39,712 bases of DNA from a virus (taxonomy: Duplodnaviria > Heunggongvirae > Uroviricota > Caudoviricetes). The number at the start of each line of letters is the position of its first letter. The stretch's first letter is position 1. Shown here one piece after another: positions 1 to 39,712 of the stretch. Both the position numbers and the translations under genes were made by a program. The stretch lies in the IMG/VR virus record IMGVR_UViG_2778261706_000022; one strand, given 5' to 3'. The notes below the pieces were generated by a model. The model saw only the letters and a program-made list of their open reading frames with translations. It did not search any database and was not told where the DNA came from.

Positions 1-72
1 ATGATGGGGCGTTGCCTTTTCGGCTTCTCAGGCGAGAAGCCGTTCTTATTACCGGACAATGAAGGGGTAAAG

Positions 73-702
73 ATGAACACTTCACCGGTGCGAATGGATG
101 ATTTACCGCTTAACCGTTTTCACTGTCGAATTGCTGCGCTCACTTTCGGCGCACACCTGACCGACGGTTATGTTCTCGGCGTCATTGGTTACGCCATTAT
201 TCAACTTACGCCCGCCATGCAACTGACGCCGTTTATGGCGGGAATGATCGGCGGCTCGGCGCACCTTGGTTTGTTTCTTGGCAGCCTGGTTCTTGGGTGG
301 ATCTCCGACCATATTGGTCGGCAAAAAATCTTCACCTTCAGCTTTTTGCTGATTACGCTCGCTTCGTTCTTGCAATTTTTTGCCACCACGCCAGAGCATC
401 TTATTGGACTGCGCATTTTGATCGGCATTGGTCTGGGAGGCGATTACTCAGTAGGTCACACCTTGCTGGCTGAATTTTCCCCGCGCCGCCATCGCGGTGT
501 TTTGCTGGGCGCATTCAGCGTGGTGTGGACCGTAGGCTATGTGTTGGCAAGTATTGCCGGACATCACTTTATTTCCGAAAACCCGGAGGCCTGGCGCTGG
601 CTGCTGGCATCGGCAGCTCTGCCCGCGTTGTTGATTACGTTATTACGCTGGGGAACGCCAGAATCGCCACGCTGGCTACTTATAGCGCGGCGATTTTTTT
701 GA
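73..702 (+). pseudogene. MFS-family transporter gene, 5' portion only, interrupted by prophage insertion
   Basis: Translation has MFS/sugar-porter signatures (GxxxDxxGRQ-like loop, PESPRW motif). ATG at 73 follows a GAAGGGG Shine-Dalgarno. The frame ends in a TGA at 700-702 that coincides with the first prophage terminal repeat, and the protein is far shorter than a 12-TM transporter. Confidence 0.6.
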
Positions 703-1814: not shown

Positions 1815-2279
1815 ATGATTCAGGGAGGTGATTATTTACTTAAAGAAAACGAAGAGTTAGGTGGTGAAAACGATCATAAAATGATCATTTTATTGACTTT
1901 TTATACAGTGAAGGTAGGATCACGCGTATATGTAGTATGTTTCAAATCAACAGGATACTACATAAAAGTGAAACCCAGCATAGCTGGAACTATGCTGGGT
2001 CAATCTGTAAAAACTTGCATCAATGCTTTACTTCGAGCTCGTGGCGTATCCTATGATATTCCCCGGTCTCCTGTAAAGCAGAGATGCATAAAAAGGAGAT
2101 CTTTATCATGGATGAAAGAGCCTGTTTGCCCTGCCTGTAAGACTCCCTTACAGCTCATCTATCGCCGTTCTCGATCTCAAAATGGCAAGACATACAAACC
2201 CAAAAATGCTTCCTGTTTCAGGATGCTGATATGTCCTGCCTGTTCTCCCAGGAGGGAAAATACACAAAACGTGCATTAA
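1815..2279 (+). CDS. Hypothetical protein with C-terminal CPAC...CPAC zinc-ribbon motif
   Basis: Only ORF in an AT-rich 570-bp gap and divergent from com. Two CPAC motifs in the translation. Start uncertain (internal ATG at 1881 possible). Confidence 0.3.
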   Translation: MIQGGDYLLKENEELGGENDHKMIILLTFYTVKVGSRVYVVCFKSTGYYIKVKPSIAGTMLGQSVKTCINALLRARGVSYDIPRSPVKQRCIKRRSLSWMKEPVCPACKTPLQLIYRRSRSQNGKTYKPKNASCFRMLICPACSPRRENTQNVH

Positions 2280-2317
2280 CAAACTCACCCGGCAGGGAAA
2301 CCTGCCGGTCGGTATTG

Positions 2318-2563
2318 TTACATCATAGTACCGTCAGTTCCGGGCTGAACCGGCTCTGGTTGCTCTACGGGTTGAGGATCATTTTCCGTGCTGTTTTCAG
2401 CCGGAGAACGGCCAACCATTCGGGCCAGCACTTCATCAACATATGCGTCGATTTGTGCCTCAAAATCCTTGCGAACCTGCGCCTTCAGCACGCGGTTCAC
2501 TTCTTCAGAATAAAGTGCCTGTTTGACAAGCTCTTCAGTAACCGTGCCTTTAATCTCTGGCAT
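2318..2563 (-). CDS. Hypothetical small acidic protein (81 aa)
   Basis: AAGGAG Shine-Dalgarno 8 nt upstream of the ATG. Helical N-terminus with a Pro/Glu-rich tail. Confidence 0.5.
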   Translation of the reverse strand: MPEIKGTVTEELVKQALYSEEVNRVLKAQVRKDFEAQIDAYVDEVLARMVGRSPAENSTENDPQPVEQPEPVQPGTDGTMM

Positions 2564-2598
2564 GAATATTCTCCTTTTGCAGGTATATTGCCCCGTTA

Positions 2599-2781
2599 TC
2601 AGAGCGGGGTCGGGTCGTTTGGGGATGACGGTGCCTGTGCTGTTTTACTGAGTTTTTCAGCTGCCGCATCATCAATTTTACGGCGAATATAATTTCTGAT
2701 GACCTTATAACCACCGCTCACCAGATATAACGCACTGACCACAGCGCAGAAATAAAGCAGCATTGTATGAACGAATGTCAT
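2599..2781 (-). CDS. Hypothetical small membrane protein (60 aa, one predicted TM helix)
   Basis: Hydrophobic stretch LLYFCAVVSALYLV. Upstream AAAGGTAAGG. Confidence 0.4.
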   Translation of the reverse strand: MTFVHTMLLYFCAVVSALYLVSGGYKVIRNYIRRKIDDAAAEKLSKTAQAPSSPNDPTPL

Positions 2782-2893: not shown

Positions 2894-2932
2894 TCCCGCC
2901 AGCCATATCATGACCGGCGGGATTTTTTTATT
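2894..2932 (+). terminator. Intrinsic terminator-like hairpin (TCCCGCC...GGCGGGA + T7)
   Basis: 7-bp GC-rich stem at 2894-2900 / 2916-2922 followed by TTTTTTT. Overlaps the esterase stop codon on the opposite strand. Confidence 0.45.
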
Positions 2933-4967
2933 CTGTTACCGCTTTTTTCACTTCCACCACAATGCTGTCAATCAGCACCGGGTAAGTTGCATTTTTTGTG
3001 ATATCCGTTACGCGGAGTTTGTCCACCGGGAAAGTTCCTACTGGTGACTGCGTCAGGGTAAACGCGGCACCATCCTGACCATCAATAACCGGAATAACCT
3101 GAAGGCTGTTATTTCCTGCAAAACGGAAGGCCAGCGTATGCCATTCATTATCAAATGCACCAAAGGTTCCCAGTTTCTGGTTATTTGTTGCCACTTTTGC
3201 ATTGTGGTACATCACATTCAGGTCTTTTGCGTCTGTCTGGATGTAGAACGATGCCAGCAGATTATTCCCTGCATCCCCTGTCAGGGTGACACCCTGCGGC
3301 AGAGAGGAAACCGGCCAGTAAAGCCCCATGACATACTGGTTTGCCACCAGGTCGCCAGGTACTTTAAAACGACAACTGATTAAACCACCATTTTTCAGCA
3401 GTTCAGCACCAGTACCGGCATCATGATCCAGATACCAAGATGATTTACCTGTTTCCTTGGTCAGTTTCATTGCCTTACCACCTGTGCCTCCTGCATCACT
3501 GATAATTTCAGCTTTACCGCCAGCCGGCTCCCAGCCCTGGGCTTTCAGATTTCCTTCTGACTCACTGACACGATAAGACAGCAGTGTTGTGGTTACTGCT
3601 TCAGTTTCTGAAGGTGACGGCACTGGTGCTTCAGTTTCAGAAGATGGAACATCGGCTTTTACTGTGGTTCGCCCCGCATGAGTCAGAACTGCCGTGGCCA
3701 GACGGTCGGAAATAATCCCACGACGTGCCCATGAACTGAAATGGCTGGCCCGGTCCGCAGATGTCCAGGTGGCGGCACTGTTACGCCACGTTGAGCCGTA
3801 ATAACCAATGGATTCAATATCCGGGTCTTCTGCCGGATTGTTGGTGGGTACATTCGCGTCATTTTCATCTGTCATTAATGGAACGAAATGAATGTTTTTA
3901 TCTGTTTTGTTTTTGTAGCCGCCATAGATTGCCTGGTATGCCGGTTCATTTTTCTGTTTCCAGAAATACGTGGTATCGCCACAAATCCACGGAACGCCAG
4001 CAGCACTGCCACCGGTACACTGTTCCGCCTGTTCAGCCAGGTCTGCGCGGAATTTTTCCACCATCGCCAGAAACAGCGCGGAATGCTCCGTCGGCTTCGC
4101 ATCAATATCAAACTCGCCCTGCATCCACACCACAGCAAGCAGGCGGTTTTTCGGGTTCTTCGCCAGTGCCGCTTTTGTCCGGCTGATTAAGTCCTTATAC
4201 AGCGGCTTATCCACACCCCAGCGGGCTGAGTCCTCTGAAGCACCCGTGCTGTCACTGTACGTGCCGTCAGCACCCGCCGTGAATGCAGAACCACCACGGC
4301 AGCAGGGAACCAGCAGAATCCCCGCATCTGCCGGAATAAACGGCAGCAGTTTTTTGGCAATGTGAAGCCCCTGACCCACGGTGCCATATTGCCCTTTAGC
4401 CACATCCGCTTTCGGGTGATTTTTTCCACTCATATCCTGCACATCATGCAGACAGTGGTCGGCCAGAATGATGTCGTTATACTGACAGGCTTTACCTCCC
4501 GGCGTGACTGTACTGCGACGGGCTAACTGCATAATACGCGGTTCGGGGCGGTCATATGTCTCCGGCAGTGGCAGACCTTCACCGTAAGCCATACCGTTTG
4601 ACTGACCAGCAAGAACCACCACGTAATACCAGGAAGGGGAGCTGGAAGCAGTTTCATTTCCTGACGGACGGGTATGTGTTTCAGCATTATCCCAGTCTGA
4701 CGGTTCAGCAGTACCGGCAACATCAGCACTTAACGGAATGACCGCACCAATACCCGCTCCGGTAATTTCCACACTCGGATCACCGGATACTGGCCTTACC
4801 CACAGGCAATCCCGTGTATTAAAACTGATGAGACAGTCAGCAAATGTCATTCCTCCTTTTGTTTCGGCCGGAGGAAAGGGAGCCTCAAGAAATGCCGCTG
4901 TACCACCGGAAACTTTAACAGTAAAGTTTCCGGGCATTGATGATAGTTGAACCCATTTGGACGTCAT
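2928..4967 (-). CDS. SASA/SGNH-type carbohydrate esterase with C-terminal lectin-like domain (NanS-p-like sialate O-acetylesterase candidate)
   Basis: 679-aa ORF with VLAGQSNGMAYGEG and WMQGEFD motifs typical of the sialate O-acetylesterase (SASA) family, a Pro/Ser/Thr/Glu linker (SETEAPVPSPSETEA), and a C-terminal beta-rich domain. No signal peptide. Confidence 0.6.
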   Translation of the reverse strand: MTSKWVQLSSMPGNFTVKVSGGTAAFLEAPFPPAETKGGMTFADCLISFNTRDCLWVRPVSGDPSVEITGAGIGAVIPLSADVAGTAEPSDWDNAETHTRPSGNETASSSPSWYYVVVLAGQSNGMAYGEGLPLPETYDRPEPRIMQLARRSTVTPGGKACQYNDIILADHCLHDVQDMSGKNHPKADVAKGQYGTVGQGLHIAKKLLPFIPADAGILLVPCCRGGSAFTAGADGTYSDSTGASEDSARWGVDKPLYKDLISRTKAALAKNPKNRLLAVVWMQGEFDIDAKPTEHSALFLAMVEKFRADLAEQAEQCTGGSAAGVPWICGDTTYFWKQKNEPAYQAIYGGYKNKTDKNIHFVPLMTDENDANVPTNNPAEDPDIESIGYYGSTWRNSAATWTSADRASHFSSWARRGIISDRLATAVLTHAGRTTVKADVPSSETEAPVPSPSETEAVTTTLLSYRVSESEGNLKAQGWEPAGGKAEIISDAGGTGGKAMKLTKETGKSSWYLDHDAGTGAELLKNGGLISCRFKVPGDLVANQYVMGLYWPVSSLPQGVTLTGDAGNNLLASFYIQTDAKDLNVMYHNAKVATNNQKLGTFGAFDNEWHTLAFRFAGNNSLQVIPVIDGQDGAAFTLTQSPVGTFPVDKLRVTDITKNATYPVLIDSIVVEVKKAVTE

Positions 4968-17521: not shown

Positions 17522-18082
17522 TTACAGTTCCTCCGGCGGTTCGACCGCCGTTGTCGTGTTCCCCGGCAAATCAATATGTGCCTCAAACGGCGGCGTACCG
17601 GGCGGCTCCACAAAGGTTTCGTAATGACGCAGGAAGTCGTCCAGCGAGCTGGTATCGGTCAGCGGTGCGATCATTTCCTCGCAGGAGAAATAAAGCGCAT
17701 ACATCACCGCACCACTGTCCGCCTGGGTTTCGGTGTAACCGTTGACCGCCTTTTCAAAGTAAAGCGGTGAGGTTTTTTCTGTTCTGAAGCCGTTAAGCAC
17801 GGCAATCAGCCGGGCCACAATCTGATACAGTCCGGGACGGCTGGCCTCACGCCCGTTGAGCATGTCGCCGATGACGTAGAACACCCAGTGACTGACCAGG
17901 CGACCACGGGTACGGCCTTCACCGGCACCCAGCCAGGCAACGTAGATCGCCGGGGCGTTAATCAGCATGGTGCGCAGTACGCTGTCGCTCCAGTCGCCGG
18001 GATGCGTGTCAACAGACACCAGTTCATTCCCGAAATACTCACGGATACGGGCGATGTATGCCTGTTCGGTTTCCGTAATCAT
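17522..18082 (-). CDS. Head-tail joining protein (Mu gp37 position)
   Basis: 186-aa ORF in the head-tail connector block. Confidence 0.5.
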   Translation of the reverse strand: MITETEQAYIARIREYFGNELVSVDTHPGDWSDSVLRTMLINAPAIYVAWLGAGEGRTRGRLVSHWVFYVIGDMLNGREASRPGLYQIVARLIAVLNGFRTEKTSPLYFEKAVNGYTETQADSGAVMYALYFSCEEMIAPLTDTSSLDDFLRHYETFVEPPGTPPFEAHIDLPGNTTTAVEPPEEL

Positions 18083-18942: not shown

Positions 18943-19890
18943 TTACAGATAATCCGCGACAACCAGCTCCAGCTTACCCTTCATCTCGTTAGAGACGGTT
19001 GCGTTTCCGTCTGCGAACAGTTCACGCTCCAGCAGCTGCACCGCCTGTTTTTCCAGCGAGGTGGGGACAACAATATGGGTGGGTTTAATGCCGAGTTTGC
19101 GGCCACCGTCAGCGGTAAATTCGCGCATGGCTGACCAGCCGTGCCACAGTGCATCCAGCGTCAGCGGTGACTGCATCATGTAGGCCATCTGCCAGAAGCC
19201 GTAGCCCACATTGCGACGGGCGGATGCACCAAACACAAATTCGTTATCGGTGAATGCGCGACCTTCATCGACTTTGGTCTGGGCAACCAGTTCAGCCTTA
19301 CGGCGATCCTGATAAATCAGCGGTTTTACCGCGCGGGAGCAGTCAAGCAGATACCAGGCCGGACCGCTGTAATCAGCCTGTGCGCCGACAGAGCCGGTTT
19401 TTGCCACAAACATATTGCTGACCATCTGCGCATCCCCGGAGCCATCCACTTTGGGGTAAACCGGATGTTCGGTATCAAAGAAGTTCTGACCGTCATAGCA
19501 GGCCGCACTGATCCCGTCACGCAGGGCAGCAAAGACCAGCTCATCCGGTTGTACCGCCGCAGCGCGCCCCATCTCCTGGAACAACGGGGAATAAATACCG
19601 AGGTTGTCGTCTTCGAAGTCATCGCGGCTAATGGCGACAGTGCCTTCAAAAGTTTTGTTCACGATGGCATAGCCATAGGCTTTCATCTTCTCGATGACGC
19701 GGGAGCCGATCCACTCACGGAACTGCGGGAACTGCCCCAGCCAGCCGTAGGTGTTGGATTTCGATGTGGAGGGCACGGTCATCGCAATTTTTTTATACTG
19801 CGACGGGGCCATGGACATCCCGGCCTGAAAATCAGAACGGTAGCCCGTCATCAGGGCTGTGATCATCGCCGGTGTAATCGGGGTAGGCAT
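18943..19890 (-). CDS. Major capsid protein (Mu T-like)
   Basis: 315-aa ORF directly downstream of the protease/scaffold gene. Confidence 0.7.
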   Translation of the reverse strand: MPTPITPAMITALMTGYRSDFQAGMSMAPSQYKKIAMTVPSTSKSNTYGWLGQFPQFREWIGSRVIEKMKAYGYAIVNKTFEGTVAISRDDFEDDNLGIYSPLFQEMGRAAAVQPDELVFAALRDGISAACYDGQNFFDTEHPVYPKVDGSGDAQMVSNMFVAKTGSVGAQADYSGPAWYLLDCSRAVKPLIYQDRRKAELVAQTKVDEGRAFTDNEFVFGASARRNVGYGFWQMAYMMQSPLTLDALWHGWSAMREFTADGGRKLGIKPTHIVVPTSLEKQAVQLLERELFADGNATVSNEMKGKLELVVADYL

Positions 19891-21014
19891 TATTGCATTT
19901 CCTCTTTCATTTTCAGGAACTCGGCTTCGGTTTTACCCAGCAGTTTGGCGGCCGCGATATCTTCAGCCGACAGCGCAGCGGTGGCAGTCTTTTTATCCGG
20001 CACGGTCACGGTGTCGGTCTGAAGAGAGGTCAGGGCCGCAACCGGCTGGCGGGCGTCAAGCTGTGCAGAAAGTGCCGCAACGCCAATCTGCCCGCCCAGT
20101 TGTTCCAGATAGCCGCGTTCGCTTTTGAAGATGCGCCCTTCGGATTCAGCCTTGTCCAGCACCTGCTCCAGCGTGGTGCTGCCGTGCTGCGCCGACAGCG
20201 CAACGTATTCGGTACGCAGGGCGTTATACGTTTCAACGGGCACGTATTTCGTCAGATCAATAATGCCGCCAGCCGGTGTGCCTTTTGCGGTTTCCAGCTC
20301 TGCCGACAGACTGGCGACCTGTGTTTTCAGGTTGTCGTGTGCATCCGCACGGGTTTTGATCCCGGTGAGGGCAGACAGCGCCGCCGTGCCCAGCTCCGGC
20401 GTAAATTCGTCACCGTCAGCCACGGTCAGACCGAGCGCCGTCAGCAACTGGCGTAATTGCTCATTCATGGAGGTATCCTTTAAAGGAGGGTTTAAGGCGT
20501 TATAAAGGTCATCCGCCGACAGCGCGGCGACAGGATTCATGCCGGTCAGACCGGGGTCACCGGTAATAGCCAGCATCCGAAGTTCGACAGGTTCGCCGGT
20601 GTTCTCGTCATAGCCAATCACCGGTGAAAACCAGGGGAATTCGTTATTACGCAGATGTTCAAGGGCCGGAGGGTTCCACTTCGGGCGCACCTCGAAGCCA
20701 CGCTCTTCACTGAAGCGAAAATTCTCCGGTGAGGCCATCACAAAACCGGCAGCCGGTGCCTGATGCCCCTTAATCAGGGTCTGGTGGTTGTAGTCAATTT
20801 TCACCGGCTGATTGAGCGCCACAACCCGGGATACCATGCGCTCAACGGTCGCACGGTTAATCAGCCAGCCCTCGGCCGGTTTTTCCGGGCGACCGTCACG
20901 GGCCTTTACCCGACCGGCTGGCATGATCTGACACCAGTCACCGTCCCCGTCTGCGGACAGGCTGATGGCATTCAGAATGGCATAAGCAAGTTTGGGCGTG
21001 TTTTTCGTCTTCAT
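19890..21014 (-). CDS. Head maturation protease / scaffold protein (Mu I/Z-like)
   Basis: 374-aa ORF with an Ala/Glu-rich coiled-coil C-terminal region, upstream of the capsid gene. Confidence 0.65.
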   Translation of the reverse strand: MKTKNTPKLAYAILNAISLSADGDGDWCQIMPAGRVKARDGRPEKPAEGWLINRATVERMVSRVVALNQPVKIDYNHQTLIKGHQAPAAGFVMASPENFRFSEERGFEVRPKWNPPALEHLRNNEFPWFSPVIGYDENTGEPVELRMLAITGDPGLTGMNPVAALSADDLYNALNPPLKDTSMNEQLRQLLTALGLTVADGDEFTPELGTAALSALTGIKTRADAHDNLKTQVASLSAELETAKGTPAGGIIDLTKYVPVETYNALRTEYVALSAQHGSTTLEQVLDKAESEGRIFKSERGYLEQLGGQIGVAALSAQLDARQPVAALTSLQTDTVTVPDKKTATAALSAEDIAAAKLLGKTEAEFLKMKEEMQ

Positions 21015-21160
21015 TCCGGCAGCATAAGCCGGGAATTTTCAGGGCGGGTTTTGCGGGATTTCAGGAAGTGCTTCCAGGGGAAAAATACAAAGGCGCTTCA
21101 CGCAGATTTTAAAGCCCGTTAAATACAGGTTAGAAAATCACGACACGCGCCTGAAGGGGG

Positions 21161-21185
21161 TAAGGTAATGCATTTGCATACCTTA
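21161..21185. promoter_or_regulatory. Palindrome in the central G-I intergenic region
   Basis: TAAGGTAATGCATTTGCATACCTTA: near-perfect dyad in the 176-bp gap between the virion-morphogenesis and protease genes. Confidence 0.4.
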
Positions 21186-21190
21186 AACAA

Positions 21191-21664
21191 TTAAGGCGTT
21201 TCTGTGGCCTTTTTAAAGCGTTTTCTGATTTCGTCCATGATCTCCTGCTCTGCCACCTGATCAAAGCCCATATACGGGCGTGCGCCAATGGCCGCCGGTC
21301 CCGGTGGCATACCAGGCAGGCCACCCCACTGATGAATGGCCGCATAAGGCTCATTTGATCCAATCAGCGCCCAGGTATCGCCATAATCCGTGGTCAGGCG
21401 TCGGGCCAGATCGCCGTTCAGCGTCAGGATTTTGCCGGGCATGTATCCCTTACGGGTACGCCACTTGCGGTAAGGAGCTGACCAGTCATGCCAGCGTTCG
21501 CCGTCCGGCTCTTTTTCCTGTTCAAACGCCATTTCTGACGATGACAGAAGACTCGCCGCCACACTGCGGGCCAGGTCTTTCCCTCCACCCACAAACTGAA
21601 GCCGGGCAAAGACCCGCTGGAGACGCGTAACGTCAACAACGACAGCGGCATCAATGGATGACAT
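21191..21664 (-). CDS. Virion morphogenesis protein (Mu G-like)
   Basis: 157-aa ORF at the position and size of Mu G. Confidence 0.6.
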   Translation of the reverse strand: MSSIDAAVVVDVTRLQRVFARLQFVGGGKDLARSVAASLLSSSEMAFEQEKEPDGERWHDWSAPYRKWRTRKGYMPGKILTLNGDLARRLTTDYGDTWALIGSNEPYAAIHQWGGLPGMPPGPAAIGARPYMGFDQVAEQEIMDEIRKRFKKATETP

Positions 21665-21785
21665 ATTGCCTCCGCATAAAGGATGAATATAAAATAAACA
21701 GGCGGTCAGTGTACGCTTAACTGGTAAAGTCGGTGCCTGCCTCCGGGTGGATCATGTATGCGGGTTCAACCCCCGCCACTGACCG

Positions 21786-28954: not shown

Positions 28955-28987
28955 CGGTGAAGGAAAGGCGGCAGGCTTTGCGGAATA

Positions 28988-29413
28988 TCAGAAAAGTGGC
29001 GGTTGTGTTCTTGCCAGATGCAGACGGCGCTGTTCACGTATGACGGTATAAATCTGGGTTTCTGACATCCGGTAATGGCGGCGAAGGGATTCAATTTTCT
29101 CGCCCCGGTCCCAGCGCGAAAATATCTCATTGTTTCGCAGCTCGGCAAAGAGAGATTCCCCGACCGGCAGGTAATAACCCCGTCCGCCCATATAGGCTGC
29201 CTGAGCCGCAGCCACCTTGCGTGCCAGTTTGCCGGCCAGTACCGGCTCAATCCCCTGACGCTGAAGTTCTGCGCCGGTGACTTCAACCAGTTCTGACAGG
29301 GTCCGCGGCCAGTTCTTTTTGAGAACATCATCAGGGATGTCATCAAGGCGGTCGATAAGGGCGTGCAGTTGCTCACTGTCACCACCAAACATGCTCATCT
29401 GAGTTTCTGCCAT
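28988..29413 (-). CDS. mor: Mor/C-family transcriptional activator
   Basis: 141-aa protein with C-terminal helix-turn-helix (MSETQIYTVIREQRRL), directly downstream of GemA. Only one Mor/C homologue is present. Confidence 0.65.
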   Translation of the reverse strand: MAETQMSMFGGDSEQLHALIDRLDDIPDDVLKKNWPRTLSELVEVTGAELQRQGIEPVLAGKLARKVAAAQAAYMGGRGYYLPVGESLFAELRNNEIFSRWDRGEKIESLRRHYRMSETQIYTVIREQRRLHLARTQPPLF

Positions 29414-29482
29414 ATCAGCCTCCGGTTCTCGCGTTCCCGGTAAGTTTAAAATAAAAATCCCGCGTTGTGGCGGGATTTGGGG

Positions 29483-38960: not shown

Positions 38961-39127
38961 ACTTCCTCTATTCTAAAAAGTTACCCGCGCGGATATTCGT
39001 GCGGATATCTGTACGGGTAAATAATAGAACAAACAAAAGAACCAAATCAAGGTATTTTGTTCTTTTTATTCTTTGCGGTGTTTTTGTTATTAATATCAAT
39101 AAGATAAATACAAAGGAACCTGAGAGC
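38961..39127. promoter_or_regulatory. Divergent c / ner control region (candidate operators and transposition enhancer)
   Basis: 167-bp AT-rich gap between divergent repressor and ner genes. Contains the 40-bp palindrome TTACCCG-CGCGGATATTCGTGCGGATAT-CTGTA-CGGGTAA at 38981-39020 with an internal GCGGATAT direct repeat. Confidence 0.5.
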
Positions 39128-39712
39128 ATGAACATGAAAAACAGTTCTTTTCTCGACGAAGGAAAAGAACCAGTGATCGAACGGATTTTTCGTCTTGCAG
39201 AGCGTTACAAATCGAGAAGTGAGGCGGCTAGAGCATGGGGAATAAACGTTCAGACATTGCAGAACTACTACAAAAGGAGAAACAATCAGCCGCCACCACA
39301 ACCAAGAAAGCACCATCTCCAGAACATTGCAGAAAGAGAACATGTATCTATGGAGTGGCTAGTCAATGGTTATGGTGATGAGCCAAGCATGAAAAAAGAA
39401 CCAATTGAACAAACAAAAAGAACAAAAAAACAAAGAATTGATGATAGTGATTCCATCATCATGAGGGCGTGGGACTCGCTAACTTCATCTGAACAAGAGA
39501 TTTTGTCCAACTTATTGATCAGAAAAGGGGCCGAACTACTAACCGTTTTGCTTGATACAGATATTCAAAAACTGCACTCATTGAGCGGAGTCAAAAGAGC
39601 ACTAGCATTGAGTCTACAAGAGTTACCCGATGATACTGTAAGAGAGATTTATGAAGAATGTGAAGCTAAGGTTAATCATTTAAATGTAACCCAGAAAAAG
39701 GCTGGTGCGTAA
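39128..39712 (+). CDS. Repressor c-like protein
   Basis: Divergent from ner. ATG at 39128 is preceded by AAAGGAA. 194-aa protein with an N-terminal HTH-like segment (SRSEAARAWGINVQTLQNY). Low GC. Confidence 0.6.
   Translation: MNMKNSSFLDEGKEPVIERIFRLAERYKSRSEAARAWGINVQTLQNYYKRRNNQPPPQPRKHHLQNIAEREHVSMEWLVNGYGDEPSMKKEPIEQTKRTKKQRIDDSDSIIMRAWDSLTSSEQEILSNLLIRKGAELLTVLLDTDIQKLHSLSGVKRALALSLQELPDDTVREIYEECEAKVNHLNVTQKKAGA

Follow-up and report, generated by a model that had tools for sequence, protein, structure and literature searches.

The locus examined here raises the question of what an intergenic gap at the centre of a Mu-like prophage is for, and whether the palindrome inside it marks a DNA gyrase site, a late promoter or something else. 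Translated searches with Mu proteins showed that the minus strand of the window (the whole stretch of 39,712 nucleotides under analysis) carries a Mu-like prophage in complete form. The prophage is collinear with Mu from ner (∼38.8 kb) to mom (∼0.85 kb), its right end lies near window position 680, and the identities of its proteins to those of Mu range from 26% to 79%. The gap separates homologues of Mu G and Mu I, of which I opens the second late operon, and a Mor/C-family activator gene is located immediately upstream of lys (Table 1). The boundaries that the original prediction had assigned to the G-I gap proved exact. An Rfam scan returned no RNA family match within the gap itself.

The region from 681 to 39121 of the window is 96-99% identical to prophage Sp18 on the chromosome of E. 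coli O157:H7 Sakai. Over the 176 bp of the gap, a single base differs between the two (gap position 164, which belongs to the promoter half), and the half that holds the gyrase site shows 0 differences. The Sp18 central gyrase site was tested by Oram and Pato (J Bacteriol, 2004); E. coli gyrase reportedly cleaved the Sakai fragment specifically, both in vitro and in vivo, and processive supercoiling is reported to have been enhanced. Because the gyrase-site half is identical to Sp18, the central claim of the present analysis is already published biology. The gap had also been described as lying near the centre of the element, and this was confirmed; in Sp18 the equivalent point is 18.3 kb and 20.5 kb from the two ends.

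Sequences closely related to the gap are widespread. A 401-bp segment spanning it is present in 228 complete E. coli genomes, with many O157:H7 strains 100% identical, and among phage records the nearest, at 95.7%, are "Mu-like phage" inserts carried by Stx phages. Matches to Mu, D108 and SfMu are confined to the coding parts, at ∼71-73%. The insertion junction of the prophage in the window is not shared by any complete E. coli genome in the collection, as expected of a transposing phage.

Table 1. Features of the G-I gap, its flanking genes and the related region upstream of lys (window coordinates).
Feature	Position	Strand	Details
I homologue (head protease/scaffold)	19890..21014	-	Pfam Mu-like_Pro, E = 1.5e-76; 48% identity to Mu I
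G-I gap	21015-21190		176 bp
Inverted repeat CCGGC-TTATGCT-GCCGG	21016..21032	-	Putative -10 TATGCT in loop; ends 1 nt before I start codon
Putative C-type activator box TGAAATCCCGCAAAACCCGCC at PI	21043..21063	-	21 bp, common to the lys promoter
Terminator-like structure, lys-to-G late transcript	21081..21152	-	Hairpin 21091-21152 plus U-tract 21081-21090
Gyrase-site right arm (predicted)	21105..21139	.	Phased A/T elements GATTTTCTAACC, TGTATTTAACGG, GCTTTAAAATC, ∼11 bp apart
Imperfect palindrome TAAGGTAATGCATTTGCATACCTTA	21161-21185	.	Centre 21173; predicted gyrase-site core (G-segment)
Predicted 4-bp gyrase cleavage stagger	21171..21175	.	Coding strand GC^AAAT^GC, +/- 1 nt
G homologue (virion morphogenesis protein)	21191..21664	-	Pfam Phage_tail_S, E = 3.4e-33; 54% identity to Mu G
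Second activator box (putative Plys)	28970..28990	-	Upstream of lys; overlaps stop codon of activator gene
Mor/C-family activator gene	28988-29413	-	Pfam Mor, E = 2.8e-32; 39% identity to Mu C

The probable central gyrase site and its conservation

In the GenBank record of Mu (AF083977), the 196-bp G-I gap carries a gyrase cut site annotated at 17879/17880, a predicted terminator at 17908-17953 and, at 17977-18043, the late promoter PI. The Mu and window gaps have GATTTT(T/C)(A/T)AACC(G/T)GTATTTAACGG of the coding strand in common, at equal distances from the G stop codon. A family sample was assembled from one-genome-per-species contigs and IMG/VR, with hosts including Citrobacter, Kluyvera, Edwardsiella, Photorhabdus and Xenorhabdus; the G-I gaps of its 83 loci amount to 60 distinct sequences in approximately 12 clades. 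A common layout runs through these 60 gaps. Some 30 variable bases past the G stop codon are followed by 2-4 TTT(T)rAAm elements at spacings of ∼21 and ∼11 bp, then by a T-run hairpin and a pyrimidine-rich stretch; ahead of I come a short conserved box and a hexamer resembling a -10.

A MAFFT alignment of 12 clades, Mu included (alignment A2), contains nine invariant columns: T56, T57, A60, A61, G65, T68, T69, A71 and A72 in window-gap numbering. All of them fall within the second and third phased elements of the right arm. A conserved heptamer, GGYATRC (GGTATGC in the window, GGCATAA in Mu), lies among the variable bases with which the gap begins; in most clades it stands 5' of the cleavage stagger, and in the window it forms the left half of the palindrome. 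The right-arm elements of the window, of TTTnAAC type, occupy the same gap positions as the second and third elements of Mu. [quoted passage not shown] Absent from the window clade is the T-rich element that comes first in Mu; the clade has the GC-rich CCCCCTTCAGGCGCG in its place and carries an extra, more distal fourth element. The left arm of the predicted site would be the 3' end of the G homologue.

Sutormin et al. 2019 described a 130-bp gyrase motif by which the Mu SGS ranked first in the Mu genome. Two simple measures of likeness to gyrase sites failed the Mu positive control and were dropped: agreement with the published consensus, by base identity or by strong/weak (G+C vs A+T) class, and Fourier A/T periodicity as a proxy. 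Periodicity did not single out the right arm in the window, where the best signal lay at the start of I, and it placed the arm merely among the top few signals in Mu. An approximate matrix was built by regressing 606 published pairs of site coordinate and score on the W3110 sequence (bases 1-275,000), with the coordinate convention set from ciprofloxacin sites, which have G at 0 and C at +3. The full asymmetric fit was overfitted (cross-validated r = 0.70) and asymmetric refinements gave no help; the symmetric fit was retained (cross-validated r = 0.88, rmse 1.4 bits), with a shrunken scale.

Applied to the Mu control, the rebuilt matrix placed the SGS correctly, as the third-best locus in the Mu genome. 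It reads the Mu stagger as AATC (17876-17879), so that the annotated 17879/80 cut is the second nick; in alignment A2 this stagger corresponds to window 21171-21174, and the cleavage point in the window is predicted from this homology. Among 12 representatives of the family, 10 have the best matrix position of their gap in one and the same alignment column; in the other two, which belong to the clade of the window, it is one column off. In many clades no position of the entire 3-5 kb locus scores better, the values being 9-13.7. For the window gap, the best position is a cut after 21171 with a stagger at 21172-21175, which is the centre of the palindrome.

The score of this site in the window is 6.2-6.9 (z ∼2.3), as judged by an approximate matrix whose Mu control ranked third; on the same approximate scale ∼300 window positions score higher. 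The clade of the window is the weakest-scoring of the family by the rebuilt matrix. This moderate score supports the position of the window site, not an exceptional strength.

According to a review (PMC10052514), the Sakai prophage site was the sole foreign site that promoted Mu replication; the review adds that the essential arm is the right one rather than the left, and that it bears repeated bending motifs. One later paper places the gyrase site between gpG and gpI in both Mu and FluMu, and another reports that preferential activity was lost upon removal of the right arm. The original suggestion of a gyrase site in the gap is thus upheld by homology to Mu, by identity to Sp18 and by the position of the palindrome centre at the point homologous to the Mu stagger.

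The putative late promoter, the start of gene I and the probable end of the late transcript

The stretches upstream of lys and of I have TGAnATnCCGCAAAnCCnGCC in common. The pattern TGANATNCCGCAAANCCNGCC has exactly two matches in the window, at 21043-21063 and 28970-28990, for a chance expectation of 0.19. At both places its CGCAAA core begins 29 nt before a -10-like hexamer, which is TACGCT at lys and TATGCT (21021-21026) at I. The shared box and equal spacing to the -10 place PI at ∼21015-21063, far from the palindrome; the putative PI elements lie ∼100-150 bp downstream of it. A late promoter had been proposed as the other possible role of the locus, and one is indeed indicated within the gap, but not at the palindrome.

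A simple promoter/terminator scan of 20800-21400 returned neither a full sigma-70 promoter nor a terminator. The four late promoters of Mu have CCATAAC in common, ∼25 nt upstream of the -10 hexamer. In the literature, Mu C is described as binding a 16-bp imperfect dyad centred at -43.5, at promoters with a -10 and without a -35. If TATGCT is the -10, the putative box would span about -49 to -29, as against this centre at -43.5. No dyad is evident within the 21-bp box, and relaxed searches for a box at the P and mom promoters gave chance-level matches. The arrangement is consistent with the late-promoter paradigm of Mu, and PI would depend on the activator.

The putative -10 sits in the loop of an inverted repeat that abuts gene I and has a predicted RNA fold of -10 kcal/mol (z = -3.0). 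TATGCT is invariant in all window-clade variants and ends 6 nt before the ATG. Gene I lacks a ribosome-binding site, and a distance of 6-7 nt between the -10 and the ATG is found also in the Citrobacter-type clade, the CACACT-type group, Photorhabdus and Xenorhabdus. The stem is kept with different sequences in at least 4 clades, its 3' arm abutting the ATG; the covarying arm pairs include CCGGC/GCCGG, GACCGCC/GGCGGTC, ACCGGCG/TGCCGGT, GCTGCC/GGCGGC and TTGCC/GGCAG.

Beyond the two functions originally proposed, the gap appears to hold a terminator as a third. The long hairpin at 21091-21152 has a predicted energy of -23.7 kcal/mol (z = -4.14), a value reached by none of 200 shuffles. It is closed by AGGCGC/GCGCCU, encloses the right-arm elements and is followed by UUGUAUUUUU. 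Its GC-rich 5' arm replaces the T-run of the first element in the window clade, and in Mu a terminator is predicted at the corresponding position. The simple scan missed this structure because its loop limit is 8 nt. The long hairpin, which belongs to the minimum-energy fold of the whole gap, is with its U-tract the likely present terminator of the lys-to-G transcript; the transcription end points given here are those we infer from these features.

The palindrome and its possible explanations

The palindrome had been called near-perfect, which is a generous label. Its outer arms pair perfectly over 7 bp (TAAGGTA/TACCTTA); the inner arms, of 3-4 bp (TGC/GCA), flank a centre of 4 nt and are shifted against each other by a bulged base. 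The 25-mer TAAGGTAATGCATTTGCATACCTTA occurs once in the window, and no other occurrence appears even with 3 mismatches allowed. Taken alone, the palindrome is not rarer than expected by chance. The window has 67 perfect inverted repeats with arms of at least 7 and a spacer of at most 12, compared with 36 +/- 8 in shuffles, and single-stranded DNA folds as good or better are found at 189 loci, or ∼0.8 expected per 176 bp. Since the palindrome is unremarkable alone, its interest rests entirely on its location.

On the coding strand, the palindrome is the first RNA hairpin past G, beginning 5 nt after the stop codon; as a 34-nt RNA it folds at -10 kcal/mol (z = -3.1). It is followed directly by CCCCCUUCAGG, with no T-run, and thus lacks the structure of an intrinsic terminator, in which a U-tract comes immediately after a G+C-rich hairpin. 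The statement that it is no simple terminator therefore stands for the palindrome itself, but not for its relatives, as the homologous terminator-like hairpins of loci L054 and L008 are followed by a T-run. Several clades, among them the Citrobacter type, the L008/L060 type and L058, have inverted repeats centred no more than 2 nt from the predicted dyad, with arms that are clade-specific in sequence. One example is TCGGGGTATG-CCAT-CGTACTCCGA, which has the GGTATGC left arm in common with the window. With G.T pairs allowed, arms of at least 6 are found at the homologous point in 8 of 21 representatives vs 11% at random positions, an enrichment that is weak evidence for gyrase symmetry because the control positions were not matched to post-stop-codon sites.

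Pairing in these repeats is often retained through G.T pairs valid only on the coding strand. Together with the clade-specific arms, this points to selection for RNA pairing, not to a symmetric preference of a protein. The coincidence of palindrome and gyrase dyad can be traced to geometry, since a terminator hairpin must directly precede its T-run, which here serves also as phased element 1 of the gyrase site. The symmetry is most simply explained as the inheritance of a hairpin that doubles as a terminator in related phages.

These observations raise the possibility that the palindrome acts at the RNA level only, as a 3' untranslated hairpin, a terminator remnant or an exonuclease barrier, with gyrase cutting elsewhere or indifferent to the symmetry. 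The homologous Citrobacter-type hairpins keep their pairs by coding-strand G.U wobbles, have a T-run after them and were called terminator-like; variants within the window clade turn inner pairs into U.G or G.U; and the minimum-energy fold of the gap includes the palindrome hairpin. The arms also differ between clades, as selection on pairing predicts and a shared protein preference does not. However, the window palindrome has no U-tract and cannot terminate alone, and a far stronger hairpin with a U-tract stands 10 nt downstream. Moreover, clades without a repeat, including Mu, keep the core heptamer and the best gyrase-matrix position in the same column. A purely RNA-level role is therefore considered unlikely, and a hairpin function would in any case be compatible with a gyrase core on the same bases. 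It is less probable still that the palindrome is a functionless chance repeat in a gap that is functional for other reasons. The abundance of comparable repeats and folds in the window would allow for this, but repeats within 2 nt of the homologous point recur with different sequences in several clades, and the outer arms are kept across all window-clade variants apart from one wobble change.

Two further explanations were rejected on position and uniqueness. With its two-fold symmetry, its 7-bp arms and its place in a regulatory gap, the palindrome could be an operator for a dimeric phage or host protein, such as the late activator, a repressor or Ner. [quoted passage not shown] The presence of PI in this gap in Mu suggests that the palindrome might itself be the late promoter or activator site. 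This can hardly be the case, as the putative promoter elements map to 21015-21063 and the PI of Mu is likewise in the I-proximal third of the gap; the palindrome lies upstream of the terminator-like hairpin, and the simple scan found no promoter-like hexamers at it.

Integrated reading and comparison with known systems

Taken together, the gap is best read as the Sp18-type counterpart of the Mu G-I region, combining a central gyrase site, the end of a late transcript and PI, with the palindrome as the gyrase core; the probability of this reading is estimated at roughly 0.75. Under this reading, host DNA gyrase would bind with its cleavage dyad at the palindrome centre (∼21171-21175), with the phased A/T-rich right arm (21105-21139 plus adjoining sequence) wrapped to serve as the strand-passage segment. 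Processive supercoiling would then pull the prophage ends, ∼18-20 kb to either side, together for transpososome assembly at lytic onset. The first late transcript, from lys to G, would end in the gap, passing the palindrome hairpin before the long hairpin and U-tract that would act as terminator. PI would drive the head genes from the C-type activator box and the -10 hexamer, and the palindrome would be a retained first hairpin located on the gyrase core.

A further, tentative proposal concerns the start of the second late operon. Gene I may be carried on a leaderless mRNA here and in at least 3 other Mu-like clades, with the hairpin around the -10 silencing I on read-through RNA, although this combination is regarded as more doubtful than probable. 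If true, the hairpin could form only in RNA that reads through from the first late operon, and I on such RNA would be silenced, while translation would proceed on PI transcripts, which would begin at the AUG.

A strong gyrase site lets a transposable prophage of 37-39 kb find its own two ends within the nucleoid, and such a site is also the standard substrate in mechanistic gyrase work. The site in the window is no new kind of element, being of the Sp18 type tested two decades ago. What the comparison of ∼60 gaps adds is a conservation map, with the core heptamer beside the stagger, two to three phased TTTnAAC elements at fixed positions and the first late operon's terminator overlapping the site.

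Among known systems, the gyrase sites of plasmids (pSC101, pBR322) and the chromosomal sites found by Topo-Seq have the same general organization, a core with phased flanks over 130 bp, but no sequence homology to the window site; the review cited above (PMC10052514) states that they do not support Mu replication. The late promoters of Mu (Plys, PI, PP and Pmom) resemble the putative PI in having a -10 without a -35, an upstream element common to late promoters (in the window, the putative box at lys and I) and a Mor/C-family activator gene just upstream of lys. The box type differs (CCGCAAA in the window, CCATAAC in Mu), as does the distance from the -10 to the start codon, which is 6 nt in the window, whereas Mu has a ∼25-nt leader with a ribosome-binding site. 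The Sp18 site is the same as that of the window in the sequence of its gyrase-site half, its flanking genes and its central position; the two prophages differ in their insertion and in their immunity region.

The Mu SGS lies in the same G-I gap, with a cleavage dyad 17.5-18.5 nt past the G stop codon, as predicted for the window. It has the core heptamer 5' of the stagger and identically placed second and third right-arm elements, and it too overlaps a terminator and lies upstream of PI. In contrast, Mu has no palindrome at its core and retains the first T-rich element where the window is GC-rich, and the window adds a fourth, more distal element. The matrix scores also differ, at 9.6 for the Mu SGS and 6.2 for the window on the rebuilt scale (13-14 for Mu as published). 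The Sp18 clade is thus a natural variant of the Mu site, without the first phased element and with a symmetric core, and such natural variants could guide the dissection of the signals that make a gyrase site strong.

Dyad position in Mu and expanded gaps in relatives

The Mu record (AF083977) carries the annotation "gyrase cut site 17879..17880". The stagger register was derived from the 133-bp fragments in Sutormin 2019 together with an approximate gyrase motif matrix rebuilt from the published site scores. On the basis of this register, the 4-bp stagger is AATC (17876-17879) and the annotated cut is its second nick; the dyad therefore lies 18.5 nt past the G stop codon rather than 20-22 nt. 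In two related phages, one of Edwardsiella anguillarum (L006) and L091, the G-I gap is enlarged to 676 and 863 bp, respectively. The extra sequence is inserted downstream of the phased elements that form the right arm of the site, and the gyrase-site portion is retained, adjoining G.

A predicted leaderless mRNA for gene I

At the other edge of the gap (window 21012-21032, - strand), the late promoter's putative -10 (TATGCT in the window) ends 6-7 nt 5' of the I ATG, and a ribosome-binding site is lacking. Because of this spacing and the missing ribosome-binding site, the I mRNA is predicted to be leaderless. An equivalent -10/ATG arrangement is present in related loci L005, L049, L056, L058, L063, L065 and L017-L019. 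A hairpin adjoining the I ATG and covarying between clades holds the putative -10 in its loop; in Mu-type clades, by contrast, a longer hairpin is placed between the -10 and the ATG.

A tRNA-like element between F and G

Unlike Mu, which has no F-G gap, the window has 121 bp between these genes, containing a tRNA-like element oriented antisense to the phage late genes (see table). It scores 30.9 bits against the Rfam tRNA model (gathering score 29), with good acceptor, D and T arms and an over-long anticodon region of 24 nt. PGAP annotates a "tRNA-OTHER" at the equivalent place in four E. coli relatives, and ARAGORN called no tRNA at the element.

Features of the window outside the G-I gap
Feature	Position	Strand	Remarks
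Flank, sugar/MFS transporter gene fragment	1-702	+	flanks the prophage; prophage right end at ~680
Two ORFs	1815-2692	+	no Pfam match
679-aa protein	2928-4967	-	sialate-O-acetylesterase-like SASA domain + DUF6645
tRNA-like element	21705-21784	+	inside F-G gap 21665-21785
ORF, 237 aa	38999-39712	+	repressor position; no Pfam match

Prophage ends and the gin to com/mom interval

None of the complete E. coli genomes in the collection searched carries the prophage at this insertion site. Its neighbours in other strains are many different genes, consistent with recent transposition. The immunity end (39121-39712) is unlike that of Sakai Sp18, and the alignment with Sp18 stops at 39121.

Five perfect palindromes in the window, at 4906-4933, 1973-2000, 29455-29478, 1744-1768 and 1876-1893, are much stronger than the imperfect 25-mer in the G-I gap; three of them have arms of 12, 11 and 9 bp. 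Those at 1744-1768 and 1876-1893, upstream of com/mom, have 9-bp arms and are GATC-rich, similar in this to the region of Mu mom that is under Dam/OxyR control. The interval from gin to com/mom contains extra genes not present in Mu, namely the gene for the 679-aa protein and the two plus-strand ORFs of the table. Sakai Sp18 also carries them, and the counterpart of the 679-aa protein there is ECs_4993.
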